From the NCBI GenBank assembly GCA_964511345.1, contig CAZEEV010000002.1:2770-66769 (forward strand): a DNA stretch of 64,000 nt. The letters run 5' to 3'. The notes beneath the pieces are model-generated. The model saw only the letters and a list, made by a program, of their open reading frames with translations, made no database searches and was not told where the DNA came from. Source of the stretch: an uncultured Pseudomonadales bacterium. Its GTDB lineage: Bacteria; Patescibacteriota; Microgenomatia; UBA1400; PJMF01. Shown here one piece after another: positions 42,735 to 63,719 of the stretch. The stretch's first letter is position 1, and every line of letters begins with the position of its first letter. The position numbers were made by a program, and so were the translations under genes.

Positions 42735-44279
42735 ATGTACAATCCTAGAGACTTTATTCCAACAAAATACAAGAAAAATATTGATAAGGTCAGTAGTTCT
42801 TCTGATGATGAAAAACCAAGTGAGTCAATTATCGACTCTCCATGGAGTGATTTAGCTAAAGAACCACAAACTCCAGAGTATCGCAGTAACATCACTCTTA
42901 GTGAAAATGGTATTAAAAACGAATTAAATGCCTCAAGTAAACTTGAAGAATTAAAAGAAATCAGCCAAGAAGAACAGACTCCATCTAGTTTAAATTTAAA
43001 AAATAAATCTAGTAATAAGAAAAAACTAACCGGTCTTTTAATGGTTTTCTTTTTGGTTATCGGTGGTTTTGCTAGTTACATGCTTAGTCAACAAAATCAA
43101 GATAATCGCCAACAGGCTAGCACTGGTAGTGAGGATCCATATCCAACCGATAATAGTTGTGGAACAAACATGACAAGATGGTCTGATGGATATTGCAGGT
43201 GGGATAATTGTAGGGCAACATCTAACGGTAAAATACTCTGTGGCTACATTACCGATCAAGATGCCTGTACAGAACAGTCTATGGGTGGAGATTGGTGCGA
43301 TAATCCAAATACTAGCCGCGTAGAAAATTGTGAAGAATCAGGCTTAATGCGCTGTCAATGCAGTGCTGGTTGGTGGGTAATTGGTAAAGCCCCTAGTTGT
43401 AGTGAGTTATGTGGCGATGCCAACGCAGACTGTGATGATTGTCCTACCCCAACTCCTCCACCTGGTGGTGGAGGTGGCAGTGGCGAACCAACTCCAACTC
43501 CTACTCCTCCAGCTGAGCTTTTGGCTTGTGGGACAACTGGTTGCACACAAAATGACGATTGCCAAAATGGCTTAACTTGCCAATCAGTAACAGTGAATTC
43601 TCAATCAACTGGTATTTGTGCTAAAGGAGAAAATCAGCTTTTCTGTGCTGCTAACCCTACTACAGATAACTGCTGTATTAGTCAAGCTATGCCAGTTTGT
43701 GCCAGTATTGAAATGCTTGATGCAAGCAACAATTTAATGACTGGCGATGCTGATAAAAACCTAAAGGTTGGAGATGAAGTACGTTTCCGTTGTAATGCTG
43801 TTGGCAACCAAGATGTTGATTTTGATTATCAATTCAGAATTTGGGATAAATCTACCACTACATGGGTAGACATTACCGATAGCAGCGGAACTGTAGCAAA
43901 GAATATTTCCGATACATATAAAATTAATAATTTCAGTAAGCACGTCGTCCAAGGTCGCATTTGCTGGGGAACCGAATGCCAAGTCTGGGAAATAGTCGAA
44001 GGAGCACCAACGACAAAAGGAGAACCACTACCGCTAATTAATGACGTTAGATCGCTAAACTGTTTTGAGGAAAATGCTATTCCATGCGCAGATGGTTACA
44101 TTTGTTCTGCCACTCCAGCAGGTGGCTGTCCTTCATCAGTAACAGTGAATGGCGAAGAGCTTGTGAGCGCCTGCGCCAGAACACCATCTTGCATGAAAGC
44201 AGAAGGAATCGAATGCGAGACAGTTAAAGATTGTTTTGATGGGTATAGCTGTCAAGAAGGATTTTGTACAAAACAATGA
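42735..44279 (+). CDS. surface protein with signal anchor, Cys-rich modules and Pro/Gly/Thr linker (paralog family A)
   Basis: TM helix at about aa 100; SQQNQDNRQQASTGSEDPY shared with the 6555 protein; linker PTPTPPPGGGGGSGEPTPTPTPP; modules CGTTGCTQNDDCQNGLTCQ; 514 aa. Confidence 0.5.
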   Translation: MYNPRDFIPTKYKKNIDKVSSSSDDEKPSESIIDSPWSDLAKEPQTPEYRSNITLSENGIKNELNASSKLEELKEISQEEQTPSSLNLKNKSSNKKKLTGLLMVFFLVIGGFASYMLSQQNQDNRQQASTGSEDPYPTDNSCGTNMTRWSDGYCRWDNCRATSNGKILCGYITDQDACTEQSMGGDWCDNPNTSRVENCEESGLMRCQCSAGWWVIGKAPSCSELCGDANADCDDCPTPTPPPGGGGGSGEPTPTPTPPAELLACGTTGCTQNDDCQNGLTCQSVTVNSQSTGICAKGENQLFCAANPTTDNCCISQAMPVCASIEMLDASNNLMTGDADKNLKVGDEVRFRCNAVGNQDVDFDYQFRIWDKSTTTWVDITDSSGTVAKNISDTYKINNFSKHVVQGRICWGTECQVWEIVEGAPTTKGEPLPLINDVRSLNCFEENAIPCADGYICSATPAGGCPSSVTVNGEELVSACARTPSCMKAEGIECETVKDCFDGYSCQEGFCTKQ

Positions 44280-45274
44280 ATATAGATCAACATCAAACAC
44301 CAACCACTTATTTAAAATCCAAAGATGGGCATAGTTCTGGTGTAATGAAAAAAACAAGTAACTTTAAAGCAATTCTAATGGCTCTTGGTTTGCTAGTGTT
44401 TATTGGTGGAACAGTCAGCGTTTTTCTCATCAGTCAAAAACAAGACACCACTCCAGTAGCTCCAAATGCTCCACAATCACAACCGGCCGCTTATATTGAA
44501 AAAACACAAACCTGTACCCTAGAGTTTGAAGTAACAGAACCTGAAGAAGAAAAAGTTTCTTGTGGTAATAGTGGATGCACTAATACTGACGACTGTGTCA
44601 GTGGTTATGTTTGCGTTTCTACTTCAGCCACAGATGATGACGGCAATATTATGAAGTATTGTGCTGACGAGGATTATTTAGACGCATGTGTTAATAATCC
44701 AAATCAAAACAATTGTTGCGAAGCACCAGAGGAAAATAAATTAGAATGTGGTGAAAAAGGTTGCGATAATGACGAGGATTGCGAGGATAATTTAATTTGT
44801 GTTGATGCCGATGGCAACAATAGATATTGTGCTAAAGAATCATATCAAGATGCTTGTGCAGATGATCCGGATGAAGAAACCTGCTGTGAAGCACCAGCTA
44901 CAGTCACTCCTACTACTACACTCACCACTACGCCAACTGTTACGCCTACGACAACTGTAACTGCAACACCAACTAACAAAACTACTACCGTAACTCCCAC
45001 TGCAACAGTAACGACTATCATCACCACTGTCGGTTGCAATGAGACCTGCAAGGCTAACGCAGATTGCAGCAACGTAAGCCATATTTGTTATGGCGGACAG
45101 TGCCGTTTAGATGTCAATCCAACCGATAGCCAATGTAAATTACCTAATGGCGAAACCACGATCGTCCGTCCAGTGACAGTTCCAACTCAAAGTGGTCCTG
45201 CCAACTGGGCAAACTATGTCAAGGCAGGGCTTGGTACTTTAGGTATTGGCGCTCTCTTGCTACTACTTCTCTAA
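44264..45274 (+). CDS. surface protein with signal anchor, Cys-rich modules, 45-aa Thr-rich mucin-like stretch and C-terminal hydrophobic tail (paralog family A)
   Basis: CGNSGCTNTDDCVSGYVCV and CGEKGCDNDEDCEDNLICVD modules; TVTPTTTLTTTPTVTPTTTVTATPTNKTTTVTPTATVTTIITT; C-terminal GLGTLGIGALLLLLL. Confidence 0.5.
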   Translation: MYKTMNIDQHQTPTTYLKSKDGHSSGVMKKTSNFKAILMALGLLVFIGGTVSVFLISQKQDTTPVAPNAPQSQPAAYIEKTQTCTLEFEVTEPEEEKVSCGNSGCTNTDDCVSGYVCVSTSATDDDGNIMKYCADEDYLDACVNNPNQNNCCEAPEENKLECGEKGCDNDEDCEDNLICVDADGNNRYCAKESYQDACADDPDEETCCEAPATVTPTTTLTTTPTVTPTTTVTATPTNKTTTVTPTATVTTIITTVGCNETCKANADCSNVSHICYGGQCRLDVNPTDSQCKLPNGETTIVRPVTVPTQSGPANWANYVKAGLGTLGIGALLLLLL

Positions 45275-45303: not shown

Positions 45304-45377
45304 GAAGATAAATGCGTGTGTAGCTCAATTGGTTAGAGCTCCAAGCTTATACCTTGGCGGTTCTAGGTTCGAGTCCT
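45304..45377 (+). tRNA. tRNA-Ile, anticodon UAU (decodes AUA)
   Basis: Hand-folded cloverleaf: acceptor GCGTGTG/CACACGC, D-arm GCTC-AATTGGTTA-GAGC, anticodon stem CCAAG/CTTGG with loop CTTATAC, T-arm CTAGG-TTCGAGT-CCTAG, discriminator A; no encoded CCA. Confidence 0.8.
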
Positions 45378-45439
45378 AGCACACGCACAGAACCCTCTTA
45401 AAAAATTTTTTATCCTCTCAAACATGTTAGAATAAATAT

Positions 45440-45889
45440 GTGTTACGCAAACTATTGATCATTATCGTCGTCATGTTTTTAATTTTTGGAACTTATAAAA
45501 TAGCTAAAGCTAAAAATCTTTTACCGAGCACTGTTTTTTCTAAAATCGAAGAAATTATTCCAGACAAAATTACTTTGCCTTGGAACAAGGAGAAAGAAAT
45601 TAAACTTGATGAGGTAAAAGTCGAACAAAAAGATCTAGAAAAACTTGGAGCTGATGGTCTATCTCAAATTCAGATCTTAGCAAACAAAGCCAAAGAAGCT
45701 GGTGGTGTTGCTCAAGACTTTGTAGATGACGTGGTCAAGGTTGACGAAAGTTCTGATAAAAATATCTCTGAAAAAGCATTCGATTATGGTAGATATATTT
45801 ATTGCCAAGAAGTAGTCAAACAGTATGAAGTCGCTCACAATTCTAATGAGGCTACTGACAGTTCAAGCACGGATTTAACATCAGAATAA
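45440..45889 (+). CDS. hypothetical protein with N-terminal TM anchor and acidic C-terminus
   Basis: 149 aa; TM helix LLIIIVVMFLIFGTY. Confidence 0.3.
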   Translation: MLRKLLIIIVVMFLIFGTYKIAKAKNLLPSTVFSKIEEIIPDKITLPWNKEKEIKLDEVKVEQKDLEKLGADGLSQIQILANKAKEAGGVAQDFVDDVVKVDESSDKNISEKAFDYGRYIYCQEVVKQYEVAHNSNEATDSSSTDLTSE

Positions 45890-46879
45890 ATGATGCTGCA
45901 AAAATTTTGGTTTTTCACCAACAGAAGAAGAGATAATTTTTTGTACACTTGGCAAACTTTGCAATAAATTTAAAACTTCTTTTTCATATTGAGGTAATGT
46001 CAAAACATGTACATTAAAACCTGTATTGATAGTGAAATAAGTTGGAATACCCTCTTTTCTAAGCTTACGAACAGCTTGCATAACTTCAATTGTCCCTGGA
46101 TAAAACAGTAATATATTTGGCTTGCTAGTTAATAAGATACTGTGAAATTCTAGAGCCTCAGCCTCAATTAATTCTCCTAAAGTTACGAAGTCTTTATCTA
46201 AAATTGCTTTTTTGACATTTGTAAGCTTTTCACCAATTTTCTCTTGACGAGCTGTAAAAAATAAACTTGTTTCTGCTAGATCATGACCCTCTGTGGAACT
46301 TAAGTTCTTTTTGTCTTCTGACACAATCGCCACCAAGTCTCTGATTGGAAAAGAATCTGGCTCTGCAAAACTTTGCGAATAAGATTCCTCTGAAGTTTCT
46401 CCATCCAACCATTCCACAAAACCTCCGTAAACACAACGACAAGCTGTGCCAGAACCCTGACGGGCTAAAATAGAGAGTTCTTTTTCTGATAGATCTAAAC
46501 CAATAGCCTTGCTAGCAGCTATCGTTAGAGCAGCAAAGCCAGATCCAGAACTAGAAAGGCCAGTACTTTTAGGAAAGTTATTTTCAGAAACAACTTTAGC
46601 AAAAATATTTTCTTTTATTAAATTTTGGCTTTGAGCCAAAGCTCTAATACGATCTAAGTGTTTAATTACACGAGAGGTCTCACCCTCTTCTGTTTCACCA
46701 CCAATAAACACTTCGTCCTTGCTTAAACTTGGTGAAAATTCAACAGTGGTCGTGCTATATAACGAATCCAGAATCATGGAAATACTGCCATTGGCAGGTA
46801 AACGCAAAATTTTGTCTTTTTTGCCCCAATATTTAACTAAAGCAACGTCGCTACTGGCTTGAGCTGTAATTTTTTGCAT
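45881..46879 (-). CDS. mvaD: mevalonate diphosphate decarboxylase family (MVD or phosphomevalonate-decarboxylase-like)
   Basis: GHMP fold; N-terminal ALVKYWGKKD (MVD KYWGKRD signature); GLSSSGSGFAAL. Confidence 0.75.
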   Translation of the reverse strand: MQKITAQASSDVALVKYWGKKDKILRLPANGSISMILDSLYSTTTVEFSPSLSKDEVFIGGETEEGETSRVIKHLDRIRALAQSQNLIKENIFAKVVSENNFPKSTGLSSSGSGFAALTIAASKAIGLDLSEKELSILARQGSGTACRCVYGGFVEWLDGETSEESYSQSFAEPDSFPIRDLVAIVSEDKKNLSSTEGHDLAETSLFFTARQEKIGEKLTNVKKAILDKDFVTLGELIEAEALEFHSILLTSKPNILLFYPGTIEVMQAVRKLRKEGIPTYFTINTGFNVHVLTLPQYEKEVLNLLQSLPSVQKIISSSVGEKPKFLQHHLF

Positions 46880-46886
46880 AAAACTT

Positions 46887-47885
46887 TTAATTTTCTGGCC
46901 TTACTCCCTCTTCATTCATGTTAACTTCAATAATTTTACCACCTGCTCGAGTAATTTCTTCAGCAACAGCACAATAATCGGCTGAATCGGCCAAAGCCAG
47001 CATACAATCTCCTCCGCCAGCACCTGAAAGTTTGGCACCCATTGCACCTGCGCTTTTGCTGGCAGCAATTAAATTCTCCAATTCAATGCTGCTCACTTGC
47101 AATCTACGCAATAAAGCTTGATTTTCATCCATTAATAAACCTAAATGCGGCCAATCTTGCTGTTGAAGAGTTTTTTTAGCTTGTTCAACTAATAAAGTGA
47201 TGTCGGTAAAGATATGATTAATAACTTCTTTATTATCGCTATGCAAACTTTGCACCATGCGTACTAAAGTAGCTGTATCAGCCTTAATTCCAGTATAGCC
47301 AACCATCAATGGCAAGCTTTTAATACTAATTGGCTCAACTGTTTTATGTTTGGTGAATTTGCCGTGAGGCGTAACATAATACAAAGTGCCACCCCAAATG
47401 CCAGCAGCAATATCAAATCCAGAAGCCACTCCCTGAACTTCAAGAACAGTGGCATAACAAAGATCGAATAACTCATCGTTGCTCATTGGCACCTCATAGA
47501 ATTCGCTCAGTGCTTTAGCAAAAGCTACCGTGCTTGCGCTACTCGAGCCTAGACCGTAAGAACTTTTGAATTCGTTTTTACTATAGACATGAATAGTTTT
47601 TTTCTGCGGATATTTTTTTAAAAAAAGTTTATAGCAAGTCTCAATAAAACTTACCTCTTTTGGCAAATTTTCATTACCAAGATCGGTGATTTTTTTTGAA
47701 TAAGCTCGTAAACCTAAATCTGGTGCATCCAAGATAAAAACTTCTTCACCGTTTTCTTCAACAGTGATCGATAAACGACGATTAACGGCAGTCACAATAC
47801 AAGGATGACCAAAAACTACACTATGTTCACCAAATAACATTAATTTACCAGGCGCTGAAGTTTTAATAACTTTTTTCATAAACAA
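46887..47885 (-). CDS. GHMP kinase, mevalonate-kinase-like (MVK or divergent phosphomevalonate kinase)
   Basis: APGKLMLFGEHSVVFGHP; GLGSSSAS; SGAGGGDCMLAL. Confidence 0.7.
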   Translation of the reverse strand: MFMKKVIKTSAPGKLMLFGEHSVVFGHPCIVTAVNRRLSITVEENGEEVFILDAPDLGLRAYSKKITDLGNENLPKEVSFIETCYKLFLKKYPQKKTIHVYSKNEFKSSYGLGSSSASTVAFAKALSEFYEVPMSNDELFDLCYATVLEVQGVASGFDIAAGIWGGTLYYVTPHGKFTKHKTVEPISIKSLPLMVGYTGIKADTATLVRMVQSLHSDNKEVINHIFTDITLLVEQAKKTLQQQDWPHLGLLMDENQALLRRLQVSSIELENLIAASKSAGAMGAKLSGAGGGDCMLALADSADYCAVAEEITRAGGKIIEVNMNEEGVRPEN

Positions 47886-48747
47886 CTCCTATCTGAGTTT
47901 GAAAAAAATCCAAACCCATTTTTTCTAGATTTACCTTAAATTCCTGAGGATCTTCATGCCAAGCTAAAATATAACCTGAGCCAGTTTTTACCCCTCCAGC
48001 TCCAGTAATTTTGCAAAAGGCACCATAGTTTTTTAATTTTTGAATGATTTCTTGAGCTTTTAGGCCAACCACACCTATTTGCTCCAATAAAATCTGGTTT
48101 TCATTTAATAAACTTGGGTTGAAAACACCAGAATTCAAATTCTCCAACATTCTTTGACTTAAAATTCCAATTTTTTGCAAGATTGCTTGATTATTTGGCT
48201 TATCGGCAACTTTTTGCACCATCTCTCCAGTCGATTCACTAGCTTCTCCGGAATTGATTAAGAAAAAATGTTCATTCATCAATGTTTTATTTGATATCGA
48301 TTCTACTTTGCCCTGACTAAAAGCGATTAGTCCTCCATAAACCACAATGCTTGGGTCTGCTCCACTTGAGTGACCATGAATAAAATTTTCTGCCTCTAAA
48401 ACCAAATTATAGAGACGATCTTCATTTAGAGAATAATTATGAAATTTAAACAACTCACTAAAAACTGCAGCAGCAAAGGCAGCTGAAGAACCAAGACCAG
48501 ATTTCTCTAGTAAATTAGATTCAATTTGAATACTAACGTTAATTTTGGAAAGCGGGAATTGAGTGTGTTTGGCAAAAATCTCTAAAATATGTTGCAAATA
48601 TCGATCTTGTTTTTGTTCTTTGCTTAAAAAACCTTCTTTAACCTTACAACTGATACCCATATTTAAACTCGCTAAAATCGCGGTGTGTCCATAAACCACA
48701 CTATGTTCACCAGTTAAAATGACTTTTCCGCTATAAAAGCTAGACAT
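47863..48747 (-). CDS. mvk: GHMP kinase, mevalonate kinase-like
   Basis: SGKVILTGEHSVVYGHTAI; GLGSSAAFAAAV; TGAGGVKTGSGYILA; 294 aa. Confidence 0.7.
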   Translation of the reverse strand: MSSFYSGKVILTGEHSVVYGHTAILASLNMGISCKVKEGFLSKEQKQDRYLQHILEIFAKHTQFPLSKINVSIQIESNLLEKSGLGSSAAFAAAVFSELFKFHNYSLNEDRLYNLVLEAENFIHGHSSGADPSIVVYGGLIAFSQGKVESISNKTLMNEHFFLINSGEASESTGEMVQKVADKPNNQAILQKIGILSQRMLENLNSGVFNPSLLNENQILLEQIGVVGLKAQEIIQKLKNYGAFCKITGAGGVKTGSGYILAWHEDPQEFKVNLEKMGLDFFQTQIGVVYEKSY

Positions 48748-49027
48748 GTTGTACTTTCAAGCCATAACAAATTATCTCGCTCGAAGCCTCTTTTTTAATT
48801 TTTCTTAAAACTATTTCCACTTCGTCATCAATTTCGAATTCACTGTGCGCAACTCCCATTAAAGAAATTTTTTCTTTACCTAAATCAACCAACAAATAAG
48901 CATAGGGCAATAACTCAGTTTGATCAGAAGCAGAGACTTCCATCATAGAAACAGACAAAACTTTGCCTTTTTTACCTAAGTATTTAGACCAATTTTTATT
49001 TGAGCGCCAATATTCTGTAATTTGCAT
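48740..49027 (-). CDS. DUF35-like OB-fold protein (scaffold partner of archaeal-type thiolase/HMG-CoA synthase), lacking the Zn-ribbon
   Basis: 95 aa; position directly downstream of the thiolase; OB-fold-like GKVLSVSMMEV...YAYLLVDLGKEKISLMGVA...DDEVEIVLRKI. Confidence 0.5.
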   Translation of the reverse strand: MQITEYWRSNKNWSKYLGKKGKVLSVSMMEVSASDQTELLPYAYLLVDLGKEKISLMGVAHSEFEIDDEVEIVLRKIKKEASSEIICYGLKVQHV

Positions 49028-49088
49028 AATTTCTGCTTTATAATTTAGTTAGTCACGTTCGACTGAAATTCAAAGTGTTTATTTCTCA

Positions 49089-50201
49089 TTATTTTTTCCC
49101 CAGGATGTTAACTATTGCCGTCGCACCACTACCACCGACATTGTGCGCCAACGTTCGATCAAACTGACCAGCTTCAATTAAAGATGAAAGATAAGCGATT
49201 TGTTTAACCCCAGTAGCTCCCACCGGATGCCCACAAGCTTTTAGTCCACCAGATGGATTAATAACTATTTGTCCATCATAAGTTGCTTGACCTGCAGCGA
49301 TTGCTTGAGCTGCTTTGCCTTTAGCAAAAAATCCAAGATCTTCAGCAGCTAAAATTTCAGCAATACTAAAACAGTCATGCACTTCAATGGCTTGAATATC
49401 TTTTTGACTCAAACTAGCCTGATTAAAAGCTTGTTTAGCTGCTTTTTGCGTGGCTACTAATTTTCCCAAATCCTGGCGATCTTGCAAAGCCAAAGTATCT
49501 TGACCATGACCAAAACCTAAAATTTGAGCTTTACGATTGGATTTTTTACTACTTAGAATTACCGCCGCTACTCCATCGCTAATGGGTGAACAATCTAAAA
49601 GTCTAAGCGGTGAAGCAACCACGGCAGAATTAGAGACATCTTCCAAGGTAAATTTTTTGTGAAATTGAGCCTTGGGATTATTAAAAGCATGTAGATGGTT
49701 TTTAACCACCACACTAGATAACTGCTCACGAGTTGTTCCATAGCGATGCGTATGATAATTGGCCAAAATGGCATAAAGAGCAGGAAAAGTGGAGCCATAT
49801 TCTTTTTCTCTGCTGGCTGCCGTCGCCAAAATGGCACTAGCCTGACTACCAGAAACATCAGTCATCTTTTCTACTCCCAAAACTAGAACTGTCTTGTACA
49901 AACCACTAAGTAAAGCTTGTTGCGCCGCCACAACTGCCAAACCACCAGAGGCACAAGCCCCTTCGACGCGCATAGCTGGTGGAAAATGATCAAATTGTTC
50001 ACTCACTAAAGCACCCAAATGTCTTTGCTCATTAAAACTGCCTCCAGCTTTATTAGCCACGAAAATTGCTTCGATTTCTGAAGGATTAATTTGAGCGTCA
50101 ACTAAGACACCATTAACACCTTCCTTAATCAAATCAGTTAAACTTTTTTCCCAAAGCTCACCAAATTGACCAATATAATTGCCAATTACTTTAATGTTCA
50201 T
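49089..50201 (-). CDS. acetyl-CoA C-acetyltransferase (archaeal-type thiolase)
   Basis: Active-site Cys context RVEGACASGGLAVVAAQ; C-terminal GHPVGATG and GGSGATAI; 370 aa. Confidence 0.8.
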   Translation of the reverse strand: MNIKVIGNYIGQFGELWEKSLTDLIKEGVNGVLVDAQINPSEIEAIFVANKAGGSFNEQRHLGALVSEQFDHFPPAMRVEGACASGGLAVVAAQQALLSGLYKTVLVLGVEKMTDVSGSQASAILATAASREKEYGSTFPALYAILANYHTHRYGTTREQLSSVVVKNHLHAFNNPKAQFHKKFTLEDVSNSAVVASPLRLLDCSPISDGVAAVILSSKKSNRKAQILGFGHGQDTLALQDRQDLGKLVATQKAAKQAFNQASLSQKDIQAIEVHDCFSIAEILAAEDLGFFAKGKAAQAIAAGQATYDGQIVINPSGGLKACGHPVGATGVKQIAYLSSLIEAGQFDRTLAHNVGGSGATAIVNILGKK

Positions 50202-51276
50202 TCTGGCTCCTCATTTTTTGATAATTGGCAAGATTAATGGTTTGCAAAGCAGCAATTTGCTCTGCAAGCATGTTTGAATATTTTTTTCTTTGCATAACTA
50301 AATGATTAGTTGTTTCAAAAAGAAAAGCGTCTGCACCAGCACCAGAACCATAAGAGCAAACTAGTATTTTGCTTTTAGTAGGAGCGATATCTAAAATTTG
50401 GCTCAAAGCTAAAAGCGAAGCTGCCGCATAAGTGTTGCCCACTTCTTTTACAACTAGAGAAGGGGCTAGTTGCTCTCTAGTAAAACCCAATTGTTTAGCT
50501 ACTTGTTGTGGAAACTTAGCATTAGGAGTGTGAAAAACACAAAAATCTATGTCAGCTGGTTGTAAATTAACTTCCTCTAACAAGGCTTTTGTTGCCATGA
50601 TCACATGCTTAAAATAAGCTGGCTCACCAGTGAATCTACCAAAGTGTTGTGGGTAAGATTCTTTGGGTTTGCGCCAAAAATCTGGCGTATCAGTTGCTAC
50701 TGATTTAGTAGCCAGTAATTCAACTAATAGCTGATTACCATTTGCTTCGCTACCAAGGATAAAGGCGGCGGCGCCCGCCGCCGCAGTATATTCCAGTGCG
50801 TCTCCAGGACGAGCTTGGGCAGTGTCGGCACCAATGGCTATAGCATTTTTAAACATGCCCGCTTGCACATAAGCAGCGGCGATTTGTAGGGACTGCGAGC
50901 CTGCTTTGCAAGCAAATTGCAAATCAGCCATACTTAAATAATCACTCAAGCCTAAAGCTGTCTTAACTACTGTACCAGATGGTTTCACTGCATACGGATG
51001 GCTTTCACTACCAATAAAAAGTGTACCAATATCACTGACTGCTCCACCGTTAGATAAAAAGCGATCAAGAGCAATTTTTCCTGCGTCTGTTGCTAAAGTA
51101 ATTGTGTCTTCATCAATACTTGGCACAGTTTTGGATGAAACACCCAAAGATTTAACTAAATCGGAGTTTTTTCCTTGGCTTTGGGCGATTGTGCTGGTCA
51201 GAACTTTTTGCTTAGGTAAAGCTGCAGCGTAAGCAACAATACCAACTCGATTTTTATTTATTTTAGAGTTTTTCAT
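50191..51276 (-). CDS. mvaS: hydroxymethylglutaryl-CoA synthase (archaeal-type, about 360 aa)
   Basis: FabH-like fold; LQFACKAGSQSL (catalytic Cys); FHTPNAKF; CSYGSGAGAD. Confidence 0.75.
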   Translation of the reverse strand: MKNSKINKNRVGIVAYAAALPKQKVLTSTIAQSQGKNSDLVKSLGVSSKTVPSIDEDTITLATDAGKIALDRFLSNGGAVSDIGTLFIGSESHPYAVKPSGTVVKTALGLSDYLSMADLQFACKAGSQSLQIAAAYVQAGMFKNAIAIGADTAQARPGDALEYTAAAGAAAFILGSEANGNQLLVELLATKSVATDTPDFWRKPKESYPQHFGRFTGEPAYFKHVIMATKALLEEVNLQPADIDFCVFHTPNAKFPQQVAKQLGFTREQLAPSLVVKEVGNTYAAASLLALSQILDIAPTKSKILVCSYGSGAGADAFLFETTNHLVMQRKKYSNMLAEQIAALQTINLANYQKMRSQNEH

Positions 51277-51280
51277 TTAA

Positions 51281-52456
51281 TTATCTTGCTAAACGCTGAT
51301 GCGCGCTTGCTAAACTATGGTTACTGAGAGCTGCTAAACCAGAAATTTCGGCCGCTAATACACCAACTGCGAGGATTGTGACTAGTTGCGATGCATTAAG
51401 ATCTTTTTGACCCTTTGTGATAAGTGTTCGCAACTCTCTTTGAGCTGGCAAATTAGTGCCACCGCCAACACTGCCAAATGGAAGATCTGGAAGATTGACA
51501 GCAATATAAATGCCTTTTTCTTCGTTTTCTACGATAGTAGTGCCTTGACTTGCCTCCACAATATGAGCCAGATCTTGACCAGTAGCCATGTAAAAAGCTG
51601 CTACTACATTGGCAAATTGCATGTTTAAAGAATTAGAACCTGCTACATTAGAACCAATAATATTTTTAGCATGGTGAGTTCTTAAAAAATCCCTAGCATT
51701 TGTCTTCAGCACATTTTGCAGAATCTCTTCACTTAAAAAAACCTCAGCCTGAACGCCATAGCCTCTGCCTAATAATTGATTGATAAATGATGCTTTTTTG
51801 TCAGTACAAACATTGCTAGACAAGGCTAACATTTTAATACCTTGATATTGACTCAAAAAATCCTCCCACAATTTTTGTAGAGCAATCGTCACCATATTCA
51901 TACCCATTGCCTGATCTGTTAAGAAACTAAAACGTACATAAACATTACGACCTCTGACAAAACTCATTAATTTAATAAATTTAAGATGAGAGCTGGTTTT
52001 TTCCGTGACTTGGCTGATTTTTTTGAGGGTTTTTTCCTCCTCTAAATATTTAGTAAAAGTAAAAGCCTCGTTTCCATTTTTAAAAGCAAAAACTGGAGCT
52101 CGAGTCATGCCAAAATTTTTGACCATGACTTGCGCGCCGCCAGCTTGATTAATGGCTTTCAAACCTCTGTTGACACTGGCAACGAGAGCTCCTTCGCTAG
52201 TCGCTAATGGCACAAAATATTCTTCTGTTTGTTGCTGTTCATCAATAATTTTCACTGGGCCAGCCAAACCAACCGGCAATGCCACTGCTCCAATCATATT
52301 CTCACAGTTGTGTTGATTAGCTTTACTCAATTCTTCACCAACATTAAAAAGATGATTGTATCCATCTTTTTTCCATGTTTCTTGCAATTTTTTTTGTCGC
52401 TCAAAGATCGTTTCCAGATCAGAGAGTTCGTTTGGGTTTTTTGAAAAGAATGACAT
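51281..52456 (-). CDS. mvaA: hydroxymethylglutaryl-CoA reductase
   Basis: ENMIGAVALPVGLAGPVKI; DQAMGMNMV; GSVGGGT; 391 aa. Confidence 0.85.
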   Translation of the reverse strand: MSFFSKNPNELSDLETIFERQKKLQETWKKDGYNHLFNVGEELSKANQHNCENMIGAVALPVGLAGPVKIIDEQQQTEEYFVPLATSEGALVASVNRGLKAINQAGGAQVMVKNFGMTRAPVFAFKNGNEAFTFTKYLEEEKTLKKISQVTEKTSSHLKFIKLMSFVRGRNVYVRFSFLTDQAMGMNMVTIALQKLWEDFLSQYQGIKMLALSSNVCTDKKASFINQLLGRGYGVQAEVFLSEEILQNVLKTNARDFLRTHHAKNIIGSNVAGSNSLNMQFANVVAAFYMATGQDLAHIVEASQGTTIVENEEKGIYIAVNLPDLPFGSVGGGTNLPAQRELRTLITKGQKDLNASQLVTILAVGVLAAEISGLAALSNHSLASAHQRLAR

Positions 52457-52544
52457 TACCTATTAATAGTCGTAAAAAAAAGCAAAATCATGCAAGAAAT
52501 TTTACATGGCAATCTGGATTTTTTAGTTATAAAATAAGCCAACT

Positions 52545-53225
52545 ATGAAAACAGTGGGCATCATTGGTGGATTGGGACCAGAAACTACGGCGGAATTTTA
52601 TTTAAAGTTAATTTTTTCTAGTTTTGAAAAAGATAAAAAAAAGAGACCTCCCGTGCTGATTTGGAGCATTCCTCTTGAGTATCAGCTTGAACAAGACTTC
52701 ATTACCAAAAGCAAGGGAATTGAAAAATATATCCCATATCTTCAAGATGCAGCTAAAAGATTGGAGAATGGCGGAGCAGATTTTATTGTAATTCCTTGCA
52801 ATTCTGTGCATCTTGCCATTGATGCCGTGCGCCAAGCTGTTAAAATCCCGGTTTTAAGCATTGTTGAAGAAACAGAGAAATTTCTTAAAAAAAGAAACAT
52901 TAAAGAGATTGCTTTGTTGGCAACAAACCCAACCGTCAAGACAAATTTATATAATTTAAAGAATATTAAAATTCATTTACCCATAGAAAAAGATCAGAAG
53001 AAAATTGGACAACTAATTAATAATCTAGTTCGTAGTAGATACAGCAAAAAAGACCAAGCTGAATTAATTAACATTATTAGAAAATTTGCAAAAGAAGACA
53101 TTAAACATGTTGTTTTAGCTTGCACTGATCTGCAACTATTAACTCCAACATATGCCGGAACAGAAATTTTTGATTCCATGGCAATTTTGGCAGAGGCAAC
53201 AATTGAAAAAATCTTAAAATGCTAA
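52545..53225 (+). CDS. aspartate/glutamate racemase family protein
   Basis: IIGGLGPETTAEFY, IVIPCNSVHLAI, VVLACTDLQLL (the two catalytic Cys blocks of PF01177). Confidence 0.75.
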   Translation: MKTVGIIGGLGPETTAEFYLKLIFSSFEKDKKKRPPVLIWSIPLEYQLEQDFITKSKGIEKYIPYLQDAAKRLENGGADFIVIPCNSVHLAIDAVRQAVKIPVLSIVEETEKFLKKRNIKEIALLATNPTVKTNLYNLKNIKIHLPIEKDQKKIGQLINNLVRSRYSKKDQAELINIIRKFAKEDIKHVVLACTDLQLLTPTYAGTEIFDSMAILAEATIEKILKC

Positions 53226-54283
53226 AAAAAATACAAATAGAAAAAAAACTTATTGATACCTGGCTATTAAATTTCCTTCAAGAGGAAGAGAAAAATTTTA
53301 ATCAACAAGCTCTAGTTCAAGAAGCTTTTGCCATTATTAAAGATTTTGTCACTAGTGGGAAAACTGTGCGCGGCGGCCTTTTTTTACTCACCGTAAAAGC
53401 TTTCAATGCACAGATCTACCAAGAAAACCAAAAAGATTTATTAGCTGTGGCCGCCGCACTAGAGCTAGCTCATTCCAGCTTGCTTGTTCATGACGACATT
53501 ATTGATCGAGACGAGATGCGTCGTGGACAGGATTCTGTTTGGCAACAATATGCTAAGAATGCCATCAAAAATGACTACAAAAATCCTCAAAATTATGGTC
53601 AGAGCTTAGCTATTTGTGTTGGCAATATCTTAAATTATTTAGCTGATTTAGCCTTGGCAAGAATTTTTAAACTCCCCACAAATATTCAAAACGATCTTAA
53701 AAAAACCATTGATAAAGAAATTATTAAAACCAATTTTGCAGAAATGCTAGACAGCAAAATCACTCTTCAGAATGAGTTGCCTTCCACAGACGAGGTGCTA
53801 GAAATGTACTTATTCAAAACCGCTCGTTATACCTTTTCTCTTCCTTTCAAATTAGCTGGAATTATCAATCAATTATCTGATAGCCAAAATAATAATTTAA
53901 TTGAAGCTGGCGAAAAATTGGGCATGATTTTTCAAATAAAAGACGATGGAATCAGTCTCTTTGCCACTGAAGAACTTTCTGGAAAAAGTTTTGCTTCGGA
54001 CATTAAAGAAGGTAAAAAAACAATTTTTTATCTCACTTTAATCAAAAACGTCAATAAATCTGAGCAAAAATTTCTTACAGAAAACCTTGGCAAGAGAGAT
54101 CTCGACTTGAAAACTATCGAGAAAATCCAAAATTTATTTCATAAGTACACTAAAAACGAAATTGAAAAAACTATCCAGCAATTAAAACAAGATGCAAAAG
54201 TGCAGATTAAAAAAATTGAGTCGATTCAAATTGCTGAACTACTTGAGGAAATTCTTGACTTTAACTTAAATAGAAAATTTTAG
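53219..54283 (+). CDS. polyprenyl diphosphate synthase (FPP/GGPP synthase family)
   Basis: First Asp-rich motif LVHDDIIDRDEMRRGQ; second FQIKDDGISLF; 354 aa. Confidence 0.8.
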   Translation: MLKKIQIEKKLIDTWLLNFLQEEEKNFNQQALVQEAFAIIKDFVTSGKTVRGGLFLLTVKAFNAQIYQENQKDLLAVAAALELAHSSLLVHDDIIDRDEMRRGQDSVWQQYAKNAIKNDYKNPQNYGQSLAICVGNILNYLADLALARIFKLPTNIQNDLKKTIDKEIIKTNFAEMLDSKITLQNELPSTDEVLEMYLFKTARYTFSLPFKLAGIINQLSDSQNNNLIEAGEKLGMIFQIKDDGISLFATEELSGKSFASDIKEGKKTIFYLTLIKNVNKSEQKFLTENLGKRDLDLKTIEKIQNLFHKYTKNEIEKTIQQLKQDAKVQIKKIESIQIAELLEEILDFNLNRKF

Positions 54284-56064: not shown

Positions 56065-57168
56065 ATGAAAACCATTGGAATCTTCACTAGCGGCTATGGA
56101 CACGAAAGTATCGCTGATGCTATTGCAGAAAAAATTGAACAAAAAGCCAAAGGAAGATATAAAGTCAAAAAATTTTTCCGAAAAGAAATTCTTGGTTTTG
56201 CTTATAATTCAATTTATAAGTTTATTCCAGAATCTTTAGGACCTTCTTTTTATCTGAGTTCAAAATTTATTCGTAAAGACAATAATGTTAGAAAATTCTT
56301 AGAAAATTTGTTTTTAGTTAATACAGAAAAGAAAATTAAAGATTTTGTCAAAAAAAATAAAATAAGTTTATGTATTAGCACTTATTTTGGATGCAACCCT
56401 ACTCTGGAAAAAATACAAAAAGAAGGAATTCCACTAGTGAATATCATCACTGATCCTAAAACTGCTCATCCTCTCTTAATTTCGCCAATTGCTAAAGCAC
56501 AAATGGCTTTTGATGAGACTGTTTTTAAGTTATATGCTGATAAAAACACAAAAAAATCCGGTTGGTTTGTAAGATCAAAATTTGAAAACAACTATGACCA
56601 AAGAGAAATTAGAAAAAAACTAAAAATAGACAATCATCTAACTTTTTTAGTTGTTTCTGGCTCTGAGGGAGCGAATGCTATTTTAAAAATTCTACCTAGC
56701 ATCATTAATTGCAATAAAAAAGTAAATTTTATTATTGCTTGCGGCAAAAACAAGTTTCTGTATAACAATATTCTCGGAATTAAACAAAGCTTAAACAGCT
56801 TAAGTTCTTCTAAAGCACAAGTCATTCCTCTTAGTTACACTAAAAATCTGCATTTATATATGCAAGCTGCCGATATGGTTATTGGCAAAGCTGGACCAAA
56901 CACACTTTTCGAAAGCATCGCTTGCGAAACTGCGTTTTTTGCCATCACTCATATTCATGGTCAAGAAGATGGCAATTTGGACATTATTAGAGATTATAAA
57001 ATTGGCGTTGTTGAAGAAAACACTAAAAAAGCCAATCAAGAATTAGAAAAATTAATTCAAAATCCAGAAAAGATCAATTCTTTTACAAAAAATATTAAAA
57101 AACTTAAAGAGTACAACAAAAATTCAATTAATATTTTACTTGAAGAAATTGAAGGTTTATTAAATTAG
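56065..57168 (+). CDS. GT28-like glycosyltransferase (MGDG-synthase/UgtP/MurG-like C-terminal domain), possible glycolipid synthase
   Basis: VVSGSEGANAILKIL and IGKAGPNTLFESIACETAFFAITHIHGQEDGN resemble the GT28 C-terminal nucleotide-sugar-binding domain. Confidence 0.45.
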   Translation: MKTIGIFTSGYGHESIADAIAEKIEQKAKGRYKVKKFFRKEILGFAYNSIYKFIPESLGPSFYLSSKFIRKDNNVRKFLENLFLVNTEKKIKDFVKKNKISLCISTYFGCNPTLEKIQKEGIPLVNIITDPKTAHPLLISPIAKAQMAFDETVFKLYADKNTKKSGWFVRSKFENNYDQREIRKKLKIDNHLTFLVVSGSEGANAILKILPSIINCNKKVNFIIACGKNKFLYNNILGIKQSLNSLSSSKAQVIPLSYTKNLHLYMQAADMVIGKAGPNTLFESIACETAFFAITHIHGQEDGNLDIIRDYKIGVVEENTKKANQELEKLIQNPEKINSFTKNIKKLKEYNKNSINILLEEIEGLLN

Positions 57169-59033
57169 GTGGCAATATGAATTGAAGCCAGCTCTTCAAG
57201 AGTCGTCGCTTCTTCATAGTTTTTATCACTACGAATTCGTACTAGCCTTGGAAAACGCAGGGCTACACCAGCGCTATGAATTGGTGACTGACTAATTTCA
57301 TCAGCGGCAATTTCTAAAACAATTTTTGGTTCCAACCAAAAATCTGGAGCCAAATTCTTATCGACATCATAAATAGCTGGTTTGTGATTTTTTTGACTCA
57401 AATTTTGATCTGCCATTTTTTTCACTTCTTTAAATTGCTCATCTGTTAAACCGGTGCCAATTTTAGATAGGCTTCTCACAATTAAATCTCCAGCCTCATC
57501 CTTATCCAAAACACCCACCAGTAAAGCACCAATTCCAAAAGCTTGTCTTTTACCTTTACCCACGTAGTAACCAAGCATGATGCAATCAATAGTATCCGAT
57601 AATTTTCCCTGGCTACCTTCTTCTTCTTTAATTTTAACCCAACGCCAAGATTTACGACCAGAAACATATTTTGAGTTTTTTTGCTTCATCACCGCACCCT
57701 CTAGACCTAGTTTCAATTGCTCTTCATGAAAAATCTTAAGCTTAGTCGGATCACTAATTAATAAATATTCTGTTTTTTTAATAAATTCTGAATCAGTTAA
57801 GATTTCATTTAGTTTGCTTTTTCTAGCAAGCAACTCTTCATCAATTAACACTTCATTATCGAGTAAAATTAGGTCAAAAGTGTAAAAACAAAGTGGAACC
57901 TCTAAGGCTTTAGCCGAAACGTTATGCTTGCGCTTGCGCTGTATGGTTTCTTGAAAAGATAAAAATTTGCCAGTTTTTTGATCAATACCAATAGCCTCCG
58001 TATCTAAAATACAATTTTGTACTTTAAGTGCTTTGACTACTTCCATCAATTCAGGAAACATGTGAGTCACGTCTTCTAAATTCCTGGTAAAAGCTTTATA
58101 TGGTAAATCATTATCTGCAAACTTTTCTTTATTAATATGAATTTGTACTCTCAGACCATCGTATTTTGGTTCGGCGAGAACCTCACCCATTTTCTCAATA
58201 ATTTCATGAGCGCTATTTAATCGCTGACAAAGTACAGGCAAAACGGGAATACCAATTTCTACCTGATAGGTTTTAAGCAATTCTGCACTACTTAATCCTG
58301 GGTATTCTAATAAATAAGCGGTGGCTAACTTACCTAAGTCGGCCTTTTTATAAAATGCTTTTTCCAAATTAGAACTATCGCTTTTGGTGCCAGTTTTCAC
58401 AAAAGACAAAGCATCGATGAGTGTCATGGTTGAAAAACCGAGCCTCATCTTGGATAAGATAATTCTGCTAATGTATTTGGCTGACAACGGATCTAGTTTT
58501 TGCAATAGATTAGCTAAAAAAGCTATTTTTTTATCTTGAGAACCAATCCCAGAAGTTGTGGCTATTTCACAGAGCAATGAATGAACTTCTTTAATTGAAA
58601 ACTGTTCTTTAAGTTTTTCAGAAGATTCCAGCTCAATTAAAGTTTGTTCAAAAAGTTCACCAATGTCGCCAACTTTTTTATATCTAGCAGTCAACTCTTT
58701 CTCCAGAATAGAATGATCACTGAATAAACTTTGATCGGTATTTGAAACTTCAGAAAAAAGATTATCTGCGTTAACTCGATCGAAACCTTTAACTTTAGCT
58801 TTTACATGGGCCAAGGTTTTGATTAGCATTTTTTCTGACATTTGAAACTCTAAGGATAAATACGAAGGCACTAAACTACCCTGCATCAAATAAGTTGCCA
58901 CGGTTAATTCTTCTTTAGCTTGCTGACCCTTCATTAAATCTTTAAAAAGATCAGCTAAAATAGAGGTAATTTCCAGACGAGCGGAAACATTTTCAATCTT
59001 TTGCAAATAGACGGAAAAGTCTTTAAAAAGCAT
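57165..59033 (-). CDS. lig: ATP-dependent DNA ligase (Lig1/archaeal-type, with N-terminal DNA-binding domain)
   Basis: Motif I EPKYDGLRVQIH (KxDG); motif IV/V region EGAVMK; motif VI-like WLEPKIVLEI; 622 aa. Confidence 0.85.
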   Translation of the reverse strand: MLFKDFSVYLQKIENVSARLEITSILADLFKDLMKGQQAKEELTVATYLMQGSLVPSYLSLEFQMSEKMLIKTLAHVKAKVKGFDRVNADNLFSEVSNTDQSLFSDHSILEKELTARYKKVGDIGELFEQTLIELESSEKLKEQFSIKEVHSLLCEIATTSGIGSQDKKIAFLANLLQKLDPLSAKYISRIILSKMRLGFSTMTLIDALSFVKTGTKSDSSNLEKAFYKKADLGKLATAYLLEYPGLSSAELLKTYQVEIGIPVLPVLCQRLNSAHEIIEKMGEVLAEPKYDGLRVQIHINKEKFADNDLPYKAFTRNLEDVTHMFPELMEVVKALKVQNCILDTEAIGIDQKTGKFLSFQETIQRKRKHNVSAKALEVPLCFYTFDLILLDNEVLIDEELLARKSKLNEILTDSEFIKKTEYLLISDPTKLKIFHEEQLKLGLEGAVMKQKNSKYVSGRKSWRWVKIKEEEGSQGKLSDTIDCIMLGYYVGKGKRQAFGIGALLVGVLDKDEAGDLIVRSLSKIGTGLTDEQFKEVKKMADQNLSQKNHKPAIYDVDKNLAPDFWLEPKIVLEIAADEISQSPIHSAGVALRFPRLVRIRSDKNYEEATTLEELASIHIAT

Positions 59034-63290: not shown

Positions 63291-63719
63291 ATGAAGAACA
63301 AGTTTATATTAGTTATTTTCTTATTCTTAACTTTTATCACTGGTTTTCTTTTCGCACATCCTCAAGAAATCAGTGCTCAAACCGCCGCGCCTGAAGAAAA
63401 TTTACTGGAAGTTGAAAACGTAGAAATTTCCTTAAGCGATAAGATGATTTTAAAAGACGGCACTCCAGTCAAGGACGTTTTTAATAGTACTGATGATATT
63501 GTCAATCTAATTGTTAAAGTGGTCTTTGTTGGCGCCGGCGTAGTACTTTTTGTGATGATCGTGATGGCAGGATTTTCAATGATCGGCGGAGACAGCAAAG
63601 ATAAAGACAAGGCTAAAACCACTATGACCTCCGCTGCCATTGGCTTCATCATAATGTTTGCAGCCTATTGGATCATGCAGATTATTCAACTCTTAACTGG
63701 TATTAAGATGGGTTTTTAA
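63291..63719 (+). CDS. small secreted/membrane protein with VirB2/TrbC-pilin-like architecture
   Basis: Signal peptide MKNKFILVIFLFLTFITGFLFA, then two hydrophobic helices (VVKVVFVGAGVVLFVMIVMAGF and AAIGFIIMFAAYWIMQIIQLL); 142 aa. Confidence 0.35.
   Translation: MKNKFILVIFLFLTFITGFLFAHPQEISAQTAAPEENLLEVENVEISLSDKMILKDGTPVKDVFNSTDDIVNLIVKVVFVGAGVVLFVMIVMAGFSMIGGDSKDKDKAKTTMTSAAIGFIIMFAAYWIMQIIQLLTGIKMGF

Follow-up and report, generated by a model that had tools for sequence, protein, structure and literature searches.

How does a bacterium with a very small genome read the isoleucine codon AUA? Decoding of this codon is the textbook case of an essential anticodon modification in bacteria, namely lysidine made by TilS. 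The question is raised by a tRNA gene in a stretch of 64,000 nucleotides of contig CAZEEV010000002.1 (the whole stretch is called the window below), a gene that the initial annotation had described as a tRNA-Ile whose anticodon is UAU. We consider it very likely that this gene encodes a functional chromosomal tRNA-Ile(UAU), the tRNAIle3 of tRNAscan-SE, which reads AUA directly in a lineage that is new for it, and no observation made here contradicts its function. The gene is vertically inherited and is fixed in a lineage of Patescibacteria (Microgenomatia, order UBA1400, around family PJMF01). Whether it is the only AUA decoder of its host is a separate question, for which the answer is less firm.

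Identity and structure of the tRNA gene

ARAGORN detected a single tRNA in the window, a tRNA-Ile with anticodon tat at 45314-45388 of the plus strand, while the Rfam family RF00005 matched positions 45314-45387 with 71.7 bits (gathering score 29; E = 1e-13) over model positions 1-71 of 71. The ARAGORN call agrees with the isotype and anticodon given initially. The interval given with them, 45304-45377, had the right length and was displaced by 10 nt to the left; it included 10 upstream bases and lost the last 10 nt of the gene. The elements of the gene are as follows.

45314..45387, plus strand: tRNA-Ile(UAU) gene, 74 nt, CCA not encoded (ARAGORN, Rfam)
45314..45320, plus strand: 5' strand of the 7-bp acceptor stem, GCGTGTG, paired with CACACGC at 45380-45386 (sequence)
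45323..45339, plus strand: D-arm, GCTC-AATTGGTTA-GAGC, with U12-A23 and the GGTTAGAGC motif common to both E. coli Ile tRNAs
45341..45357, plus strand: anticodon arm, CCAAG-CTTATAC-CTTGG, with C32, U33, A37 and C38 in a 7-nt loop (ARAGORN, sequence, Rfam)
45348..45350, plus strand: anticodon TAT (UAU), complementary to the AUA codon (ARAGORN)
45363..45379, plus strand: T-arm, CTAGG-TTCGAGT-CCTAG (sequence, Rfam)

Read directly from the window, the tRNA is GCGTGTG-TA-GCTC-AATTGGTTA-GAGC-T-CCAAG-CTTATAC-CTTGG-CGGTT-CTAGG-TTCGAGT-CCTAG-CACACGC-A, where CGGTT is the variable loop. The canonical cloverleaf reported earlier, with its 7-bp acceptor stem, TTCGAGT T-loop, discriminator A and CTTATAC anticodon loop, is seen in this reading in every detail. 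The anticodon loop, C-T-TAT-A-C at 45346-45352, has the 7 nt, the U33 and the purine at position 37 expected of a tRNA-Ile(UAU), and no intron interrupts the gene; it is not an 8-nt loop, the anticodon is not shifted, and ARAGORN called no other anticodon. The genomic CAT that marks a TilS-dependent tRNAIle2(CAU) is not present, since the window and all 22 related genes found have TAT. Tertiary marks include the A15-U48 Levitt pair, G18G19 and T54-T55-C56.

The discriminator A73 is at 45387 and is followed by CAG, so the CCA end is not encoded by the gene. Among the relatives, a 3' CCA is encoded in some genes (L126:4116-4192, L130:2927-3003 and L138:2653-2729), while the window (45388-45390) and most others do not have it (CAG, CTT, etc.). 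The gene-encoded CCA is thus variable within a single tRNA family.

The isotype name given by ARAGORN derives from the anticodon alone. Of the identity elements of E. coli IleRS, the tRNA keeps A73, U12-A23, A35, U36 and A37, together with an Ile-type D-arm. A comparison with E. coli ileV, ileX and alaV produced 47-53 matches, so that overall identity does not discriminate between isotypes and the likeness to Ile tRNAs is confined to the D-arm. The codon evidence given below makes a conflict of isotype unlikely.

Several observations are weaker points in the case for a functional tRNA-Ile(UAU). Three E. coli IleRS identity elements are missing: C4-G69 is replaced by U-A, C29-G41 by A-U, and A38 by C38. 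Their loss says nothing certain about a distant IleRS, and C38 is not unusual among UAU tRNAs, as it was present in 17 of 101 phage UAU tRNAs in an ARAGORN-confirmed sample. A consensus scan near the gene found no sigma-70-like promoter and no intrinsic terminator, a scan that is uninformative for the Candidate Phyla Radiation (CPR). Finally, at minimum free energy the bare sequence folds into an extended hairpin and not into the cloverleaf. Such folds are common for unmodified tRNA sequences, and we set this one aside because the covariation described next supports the cloverleaf.

Conservation and covariation in related genomes

We scanned GTDB, with one genome per species (185,579 species), for a 36-mer made of tRNA positions 8-43 in which position 34 was left as N. 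Matches were found in 15 species; ARAGORN called the anticodon tat in 15/15, and T34 was present in 15/15. None of these matches had C, G or A at position 34, and therefore no CAT variant of this tRNA body was observed. The invariance of the D-arm and the anticodon arm among the matches is uninformative, because both were fixed by the search pattern.

The full tRNA sequences of the relatives differ from that of the window at 0-8 positions, and every stem difference is compensatory. In the acceptor stem, pair 4-69 changes from U-A to C-G or A-U, pair 6-67 from U-A to C-G, and pair 7-66 from G-C to A-U. The T-stem of locus L140 shows two further changes, from U-A to C-G at 50-64 and from A-U to U-A at 51-63. 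Over 8 distinct sequences from 17 genomes, 100% of the cells were paired and five pairs were doubly changed, a result equalled in 0 of 500 shuffles. In the syntenic ENA contig L002, where the proteins are ~72-93% identical to those of the window, the tRNA is 100% identical and the downstream (3') flank cannot be aligned. The tRNA gene is under strong purifying selection with compensatory changes in its stems.

Because retrieval by the 36-mer was conditioned on the tRNA itself, we also fetched loci by means of the neighbouring diphosphomevalonate decarboxylase (MDD) protein. A tRNA-Ile(tat) was present at the same spot in 5/5 metagenome relatives that had at least 76% MDD identity and enough flanking sequence. 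At MDD identities of 63% or less, synteny was lost and no tRNA was found within 4 kb.

Locus L140, titled Uhrbacteria, is the exception among the GTDB matches in its setting. There, the tRNA-Ile(UAU) gene adjoins a tRNA-Val(GAC) gene and the gene of the valyl-tRNA synthetase (ValRS), a neighbourhood other than that of the remaining matches. The L140 tRNA differs from that of the window at 8 of 74 positions, all of them within four compensatory pairs, and the ValRS proteins of the two organisms are 43% identical. Judged by these sequences, a near-identical tRNA-Ile(UAU) is present in two deeply separated lineages of Patescibacteria. With ValRS identity as low as 43%, the tRNA gene is either old in the phylum or has moved between lineages.

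Genomic neighbourhood and synteny

The position of the gene can be followed in the relatives by means of its neighbours, listed here with their coordinates in the window.

44264..45274, plus strand: Cys-rich, Thr/Pro-rich protein with a C-terminal hydrophobic tail; upstream neighbour with no Pfam match, a synteny marker with no part in tRNA function
45440..45889, plus strand: 149-aa protein with an N-terminal membrane helix; downstream neighbour with only a sub-threshold TatA_B_E match
45881..52456, minus strand: mevalonate-pathway operon (Pfam marks), which anchors the tRNA position in family-level relatives
45881-46879, minus strand: diphosphomevalonate decarboxylase
46887-48747, minus strand: two GHMP kinases
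48740-49027, minus strand: OB-fold/DUF35-like protein, 95 aa
49089-50201, minus strand: thiolase
50191-51276, minus strand: HMG-CoA synthase-like gene
51281-52456, minus strand: HMG-CoA reductase
53219-54283, plus strand: polyprenyl synthase

The order of Cys-rich protein, tRNA, 149-aa protein and mevalonate operon was kept in 9 of 16 related loci (L002, L127-L129, L131, L132, L135, L136 and L139). The operon itself has the same order and 64-93% amino acid identity in L002, L127-L129, L131, L135, L136 and L139, the last of which is CP011212.1, the nearest complete genome that was retrieved, syntenic with the window, with proteins 64-93% identical and an identical tRNA. Homologs of the 149-aa protein adjoin the tRNA in 15 of the 16 loci compared, and in most of these 16 the tRNA is immediately preceded by the C-terminal ~65 aa of the Cys-rich protein, at 54-88% identity, while the remainder of that protein varies. 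The block of Cys-rich C-terminus, tRNA and 149-aa protein is recognizable in all GTDB matches but L140; L126 keeps the Cys-rich C-terminus alone.

Some further features of the neighbourhood were observed. Both of the overlapping plus-strand open reading frames (ORFs) at 42735-44279 and 44264-45274 encode proteins that are rich in Cys and in Thr/Pro, have a membrane helix at the N-terminus and match no Pfam family; the second protein closes with ...GLGTLGIGALLLLLL, a tail that is short and hydrophobic and looks like a sorting signal. An extra ORF of 205 aa with no Pfam match (L002:17062-17679) lies between the gene of a 138-aa membrane protein and the tRNA in L002 and is missing from the window. 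The mevalonate pathway is complete (45881-54283), in a bacterium, with the gene order kept in family-level relatives. The trio of thiolase, HMG-CoA synthase (HMGS) and small OB-fold protein is the archaeal arrangement. A tRNA-Ala(UGC) gene is situated ~130-200 bp past the left end of the window, on a Logan contig of the same organism (L146:5279-5355), where it adjoins a TrwB-like gene and has no tRNA-Ile(GAU) gene adjacent to it.

Use and meaning of AUA codons

The AT-richness of the genome, noted initially, is evident from a GC content of 28-38% in 4-kb windows. A set of 60 ORFs (20,701 codons) contains 344 ATA codons, i.e., 16.6 per 1000 codons and 20% of the Ile codons, compared to 50.7 per 1000 for ATT and 14.3 per 1000 for ATC. 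This value falls inside the 'high' ATA class, defined as more than 10 per 1000 codons (PMC12514573). The heavy use of ATA claimed for the genome therefore stands for the window as a whole. It does not hold for most of the housekeeping-type genes that flank the low-GC glycan island at 12-42 kb, where ATA makes up 0-12% of Ile codons, with 21-29% in a few short ORFs; inside the island the share is mostly 20-50%. Such uneven use suggests that the island differs in origin or in expression level.

The codon alignments with homologs speak to the meaning of AUA. In PGK, the three alignable ATA codons are situated in columns dominated by I or V (~110 homologs). A codon-by-codon comparison of nine genes with those of relatives places ATT or ATC opposite a window ATA 37 times, ATA 26 times, Leu codons 25 times, Val codons 10 times, ATG 8 times and Phe codons 7 times; of 282 ATG codons, 219 have ATG opposite them. 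Across the 60 ORFs there were no in-frame stops, and all three stop codons were in use. The alignment of ATA with I, V and L, and not with Met, indicates that AUA is an ordinary Ile-type codon with no sign of reassignment.

Sole decoder or second decoder of AUA

Given a functional tRNA-Ile(UAU), we lean, with limited confidence, towards the view that these genomes of ~0.85 Mb have no other AUA decoder and lack both tilS and tRNAIle2(CAU). The evidence in favour of the loss of TilS is indirect: the very small genome size, the invariance and universal retention of the tRNA among relatives, and the lack of a CAT twin.

Searches by tblastn with E. coli TilS and IleRS and by a PP-loop motif scan found neither tilS nor ileS in the window, its 10-kb Logan extension and 103 related loci (~0.7 Mb). 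Apart from GuaA in unrelated lineages, these searches matched only ValRS, and no other class-I synthetase was found nearby. No match to PF01171 was found among the 29 window ORFs scanned or among the Pfam marks for 45.4-64 kb. For the 21 ORFs situated at 18.9-41.1 kb, the check for TilS consisted of tblastn and the PP-loop motif alone.

Three points speak against the step from a functional tRNA to a sole decoder. TilS is near-universal. The negative search for tilS, tRNAIle2(CAU) and ileS spans the window and the ~0.7 Mb of related loci, which is a small part of any one genome and leaves ~0.8 Mb of it. Also, both systems coexist in Lactobacillus casei, Lactobacillus plantarum, Cyanothece and Ferrimonas (PMC3575796).

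These points are the strength of the best surviving alternative, in which the genome keeps tilS and tRNAIle2(CAU) and the UAU tRNA is a second, parallel reader of AUA, as was proposed for the double systems of the species just named. We regard this redundancy as a real possibility, if not the one that we prefer. Redundancy in translation would be unusual at a genome size of ~0.85 Mb (that of CP011212.1). Moreover, the tRNA was found unchanged in each close relative examined, as expected of an essential gene, and a CAT version of its body was seen in none of the 185,579 GTDB species. All of these arguments are indirect, and a divergent Ile2 gene may lie elsewhere in the genome.

A wider claim, that TilS and lysidine are missing from a large clade of Patescibacteria (at least UBA1400 and perhaps a large part of the phylum), which decodes AUA solely with tRNAIle(UAU), can be put forward only tentatively. 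The same tRNA in lineages at 43% ValRS identity means that the trait could be ancient.

Other explanations of the gene

A recently acquired accessory tRNA, brought by a phage or another mobile element and serving, for example, the ATA-rich glycan island, is improbable. Phage contigs do carry tRNA-Ile(TAT) very often: a generic pattern had at least 120 matches in IMG/VR, a number not usable as a census, and ARAGORN confirmed 101 of them. The contrast in ATA share between the island and its flanks also fits such an origin. However, in all family-level relatives the tRNA stands at the same syntenic position, with conserved chromosomal flanks, and synteny with relatives extends to the ABC-transporter genes that separate the island from the tRNA. 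The 36-mer was in no IMG/VR contig, so that a phage vector is not evident, and a blastn search of phage genomes yielded nothing beyond short matches at the tRNA level; origin from a phage was rejected. Use of the gene as an integration site was rejected as well, as the window has no second copy or fragment of the gene, no duplicated tRNA 3' half and no att-like repeat. No integrase was found in the window.

An altered meaning is very improbable, whether by reassignment of AUA (e.g., to Met, which is its meaning in many mitochondria) or by charging of the tRNA with an amino acid other than Ile. In principle, both AUA and AUG are within reach of a U34 tRNA, and the E. coli-type IleRS identity elements are present only in part. 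Against this, ATA aligns with I or V in distant PGK homologs, and the relatives show the counts given above for ATT/ATC, Leu and Val as opposed to only 8 for ATG. A chance tRNA-like sequence or a pseudogene, for which the lack of a recognizable promoter or terminator consensus might be cited, has next to no probability and was rejected by conservation, given the 71.7-bit Rfam match, the perfect identity across genera whose proteins are 64-93% identical, and stem changes that are compensatory only.

Proposed mode of decoding

The preferred reading, a functional tRNA-Ile(UAU), would work as follows. AUA would be read by an ordinary U34-A pair, instead of TilS converting C34 of a CAU tRNA to lysidine. 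By analogy with Mycoplasma mobile, Bifidobacterium and Neorickettsia, and a Bacillus subtilis suppressor, the tRNA would carry t6A (N6-threonylcarbamoyladenosine) at position 37. By the same kind of analogy it would be charged with Ile by an IleRS tolerant of U34, which may be either a bacterial-type enzyme with Arg or Lys where E. coli has W905 or an IleRS2 of eukaryote/archaeal type. The second type is plausible, since the genome has other genes of archaeal or eukaryote type, namely an ATP-dependent DNA ligase and the mevalonate pathway with its HMGS/thiolase/OB-fold trio. U34 may be unmodified, or modified in such a way that G goes unread, and the ribosome, together with the competing tRNA-Met, would limit misreading of AUG, as the known systems suggest.

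Host lineage and other content of the window

The host is a CPR/Patescibacteria bacterium (Microgenomatia, near family PJMF01), probably with a genome near 0.85 Mb, and the window is not phage DNA. The genome CP011212.1 (853,053 bp) was placed in Microgenomatia, order UBA1400, family PJMF01, genus UBA1364 (PMC7143001). Named PGK homologs at ~55-58% identity carry the labels 'Patescibacteria group' and 'Candidatus Pacebacteria'. Public titles in this group are misleading: CP011212.1 is a 'candidate division TM6' at NCBI, yet belongs to Microgenomatia (PJMF01) according to PMC7143001, and the same CPR tRNA, with its neighbours, is present in several metagenome-assembled genomes named 'uncultured Pseudomonadales' (L126, L130, L131, L134, L136 and L138).

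The window also encodes PGK, an S1-domain protein and peptidyl-tRNA hydrolase, as well as the following gene.

57165-59033, minus strand: three-domain ATP-dependent DNA ligase of archaeal/eukaryotic type (Pfam DNA_ligase_A_N, _M and _C), conserved in relatives

The low-GC (28-32%) glycan-biosynthesis island extends over about 12000-42700. Its genes include two Wzy_C/O-antigen-ligase-like membrane proteins, a carbamoyltransferase and an ABC-2 exporter pair, along with two fusions, one of an epimerase with a GDSL-lipase-like domain and one of GT2-YdjC type. Parts resembling type IV secretion, including a TrwB/VirD4-type coupling ATPase, are present at both ends of the window (44-2383, minus strand; 63291-63719, plus strand). 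A T4SS_pilin-family array of six small genes, with one interleaved ORF that has no Pfam match, continues past the right end (L143:10001-13001).

Most genes are on the minus strand. The GC skew is negative in every 4-kb bin, and the cumulative skew falls steadily to -1.17. Strand-composition disparity was described as unusual in some UBA1400 genomes, with a normal pattern in the PJMF01 genome (PMC7143001). The ValRS of the window organism (L143:14324-16567) is short, with 747 aa that match positions 2-696 of the 860-position NCBIfam model; by this alignment the C-terminal coiled-coil region appears to be missing.

Rarity and significance

The tRNA-Ile(UAU) is an already known, uncommon bacterial solution to AUA decoding, and the Patescibacteria lineage is new for it. 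Its rarity in bacteria, as asserted initially, is true of catalogued genomes: in GtRNAdb, tRNAIle(UAU) stands in for tRNAIle2(CAU) in 17 bacterial genomes (Bifidobacterium, Mycoplasma, Neorickettsia), and two archaea have tRNAIle3(UAU) as well (PMC8450103), tRNADB-CE has 19 bacterial species with tRNAIle(UAU) (PMC4013482), and nine species in three clades were counted as tilS-less in 2013 (PMC3575796). As a general statement it is too narrow, given the 371 unique metagenomic tDNA-Ile(TAT) sequences counted in 2013 (PMC3575796), the many phage contigs and now a fixed syntenic core gene in a Patescibacteria lineage. Our literature search found no report tying tRNA-Ile(UAU), TilS or lysidine to CPR, Patescibacteria or Saccharibacteria, and the survey literature on TilS and IleRS does not mention CPR.

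A conserved tRNAIle(UAU) in CPR would add a large, deeply branching group with minimal genomes to exceptions that are few and scattered. If the clade is lysidine-free, it would be by far the largest such group of bacteria, and the finding, if true, would be relevant to the idea, put forward by Taniguchi et al., of a tRNAIle(UAU) older than the TilS system. Points of interest in CPR would then be the anticodon-binding domain of IleRS, the U34 modification enzymes and adaptations of the decoding centre against AUG read as Ile. If tilS is present, the tRNA-Ile(UAU) would be a routine extra isoacceptor. There are practical sides too, since annotation pipelines built around three CAT tRNAs would mark such genomes as incomplete, and the trait is relevant to the expression of CPR genes in hosts with few AUA decoders.

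Comparison with known systems

The nearest well-studied likeness is tRNAIle2(UAU) of M. mobile (Taniguchi et al. 2013, PMC3575796), which, like the window tRNA, has a canonical cloverleaf and an A37 suitable for t6A. M. mobile has no tilS, and its UAU tRNA carries t6A37 and an unmodified U34. Arg865 of its IleRS replaces the Trp that stacks on the wobble base, and the E. coli mutant W905R gains the activity; on the cognate ribosome the tRNA binds AUA and not AUG (PMC3575796). In that species the absence of tilS, the unmodified U34, the role of Arg865 and the rejection of AUG were demonstrated, while the system of the window is known from the sequence of the tRNA gene. The lineages are unrelated (Patescibacteria, not Mollicutes), and here the gene is fixed across many genera rather than in one species or a few hemoplasmas.

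In Bifidobacterium and Neorickettsia, tRNAIle(UAU) occurs with a eukaryote-type IleRS (PMC3575796), and whole genera have it instead of tRNAIle2(CAU) (PMC3575796; PMC8450103); the present lineage may be alike. The double systems of Lactobacillus casei and plantarum, Cyanothece and Ferrimonas (PMC3575796) belong to larger genomes in which tilS was shown to be present; they would be the right analogue if tilS is present here. The tRNAIle3(UAU) of Nanoarchaeum equitans and Korarchaeum cryptofilum (PMC8450103) shares with the window tRNA an association with ultra-small or episymbiotic cells, and in these archaea UAU replaces another modified-cytidine route (TiaS/agmatidine). They belong, however, to another domain of life, and the window tRNA has bacterial features, with a D-arm that matches bacterial Ile tRNAs.

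The phage tRNA-Ile(TAT) genes have the same anticodon, with the loop CTTATAC in 17 of the 101 sampled and CTTATAA as the commonest loop. Unlike them, the window gene is chromosomal and syntenic, and its 36-mer is absent from IMG/VR contigs. Finally, a tilS deletion of B. subtilis survives on tRNA1Ile(G34U), whose U34 is unmodified and which reads AUA strongly and AUG weakly on bacterial ribosomes (PMC3919564). This suppressor is a laboratory mutant of the GAU tRNA, whereas the window gene is natural and ancient; by analogy, such reading through an unmodified U34 is the most likely mode of action of the window tRNA.

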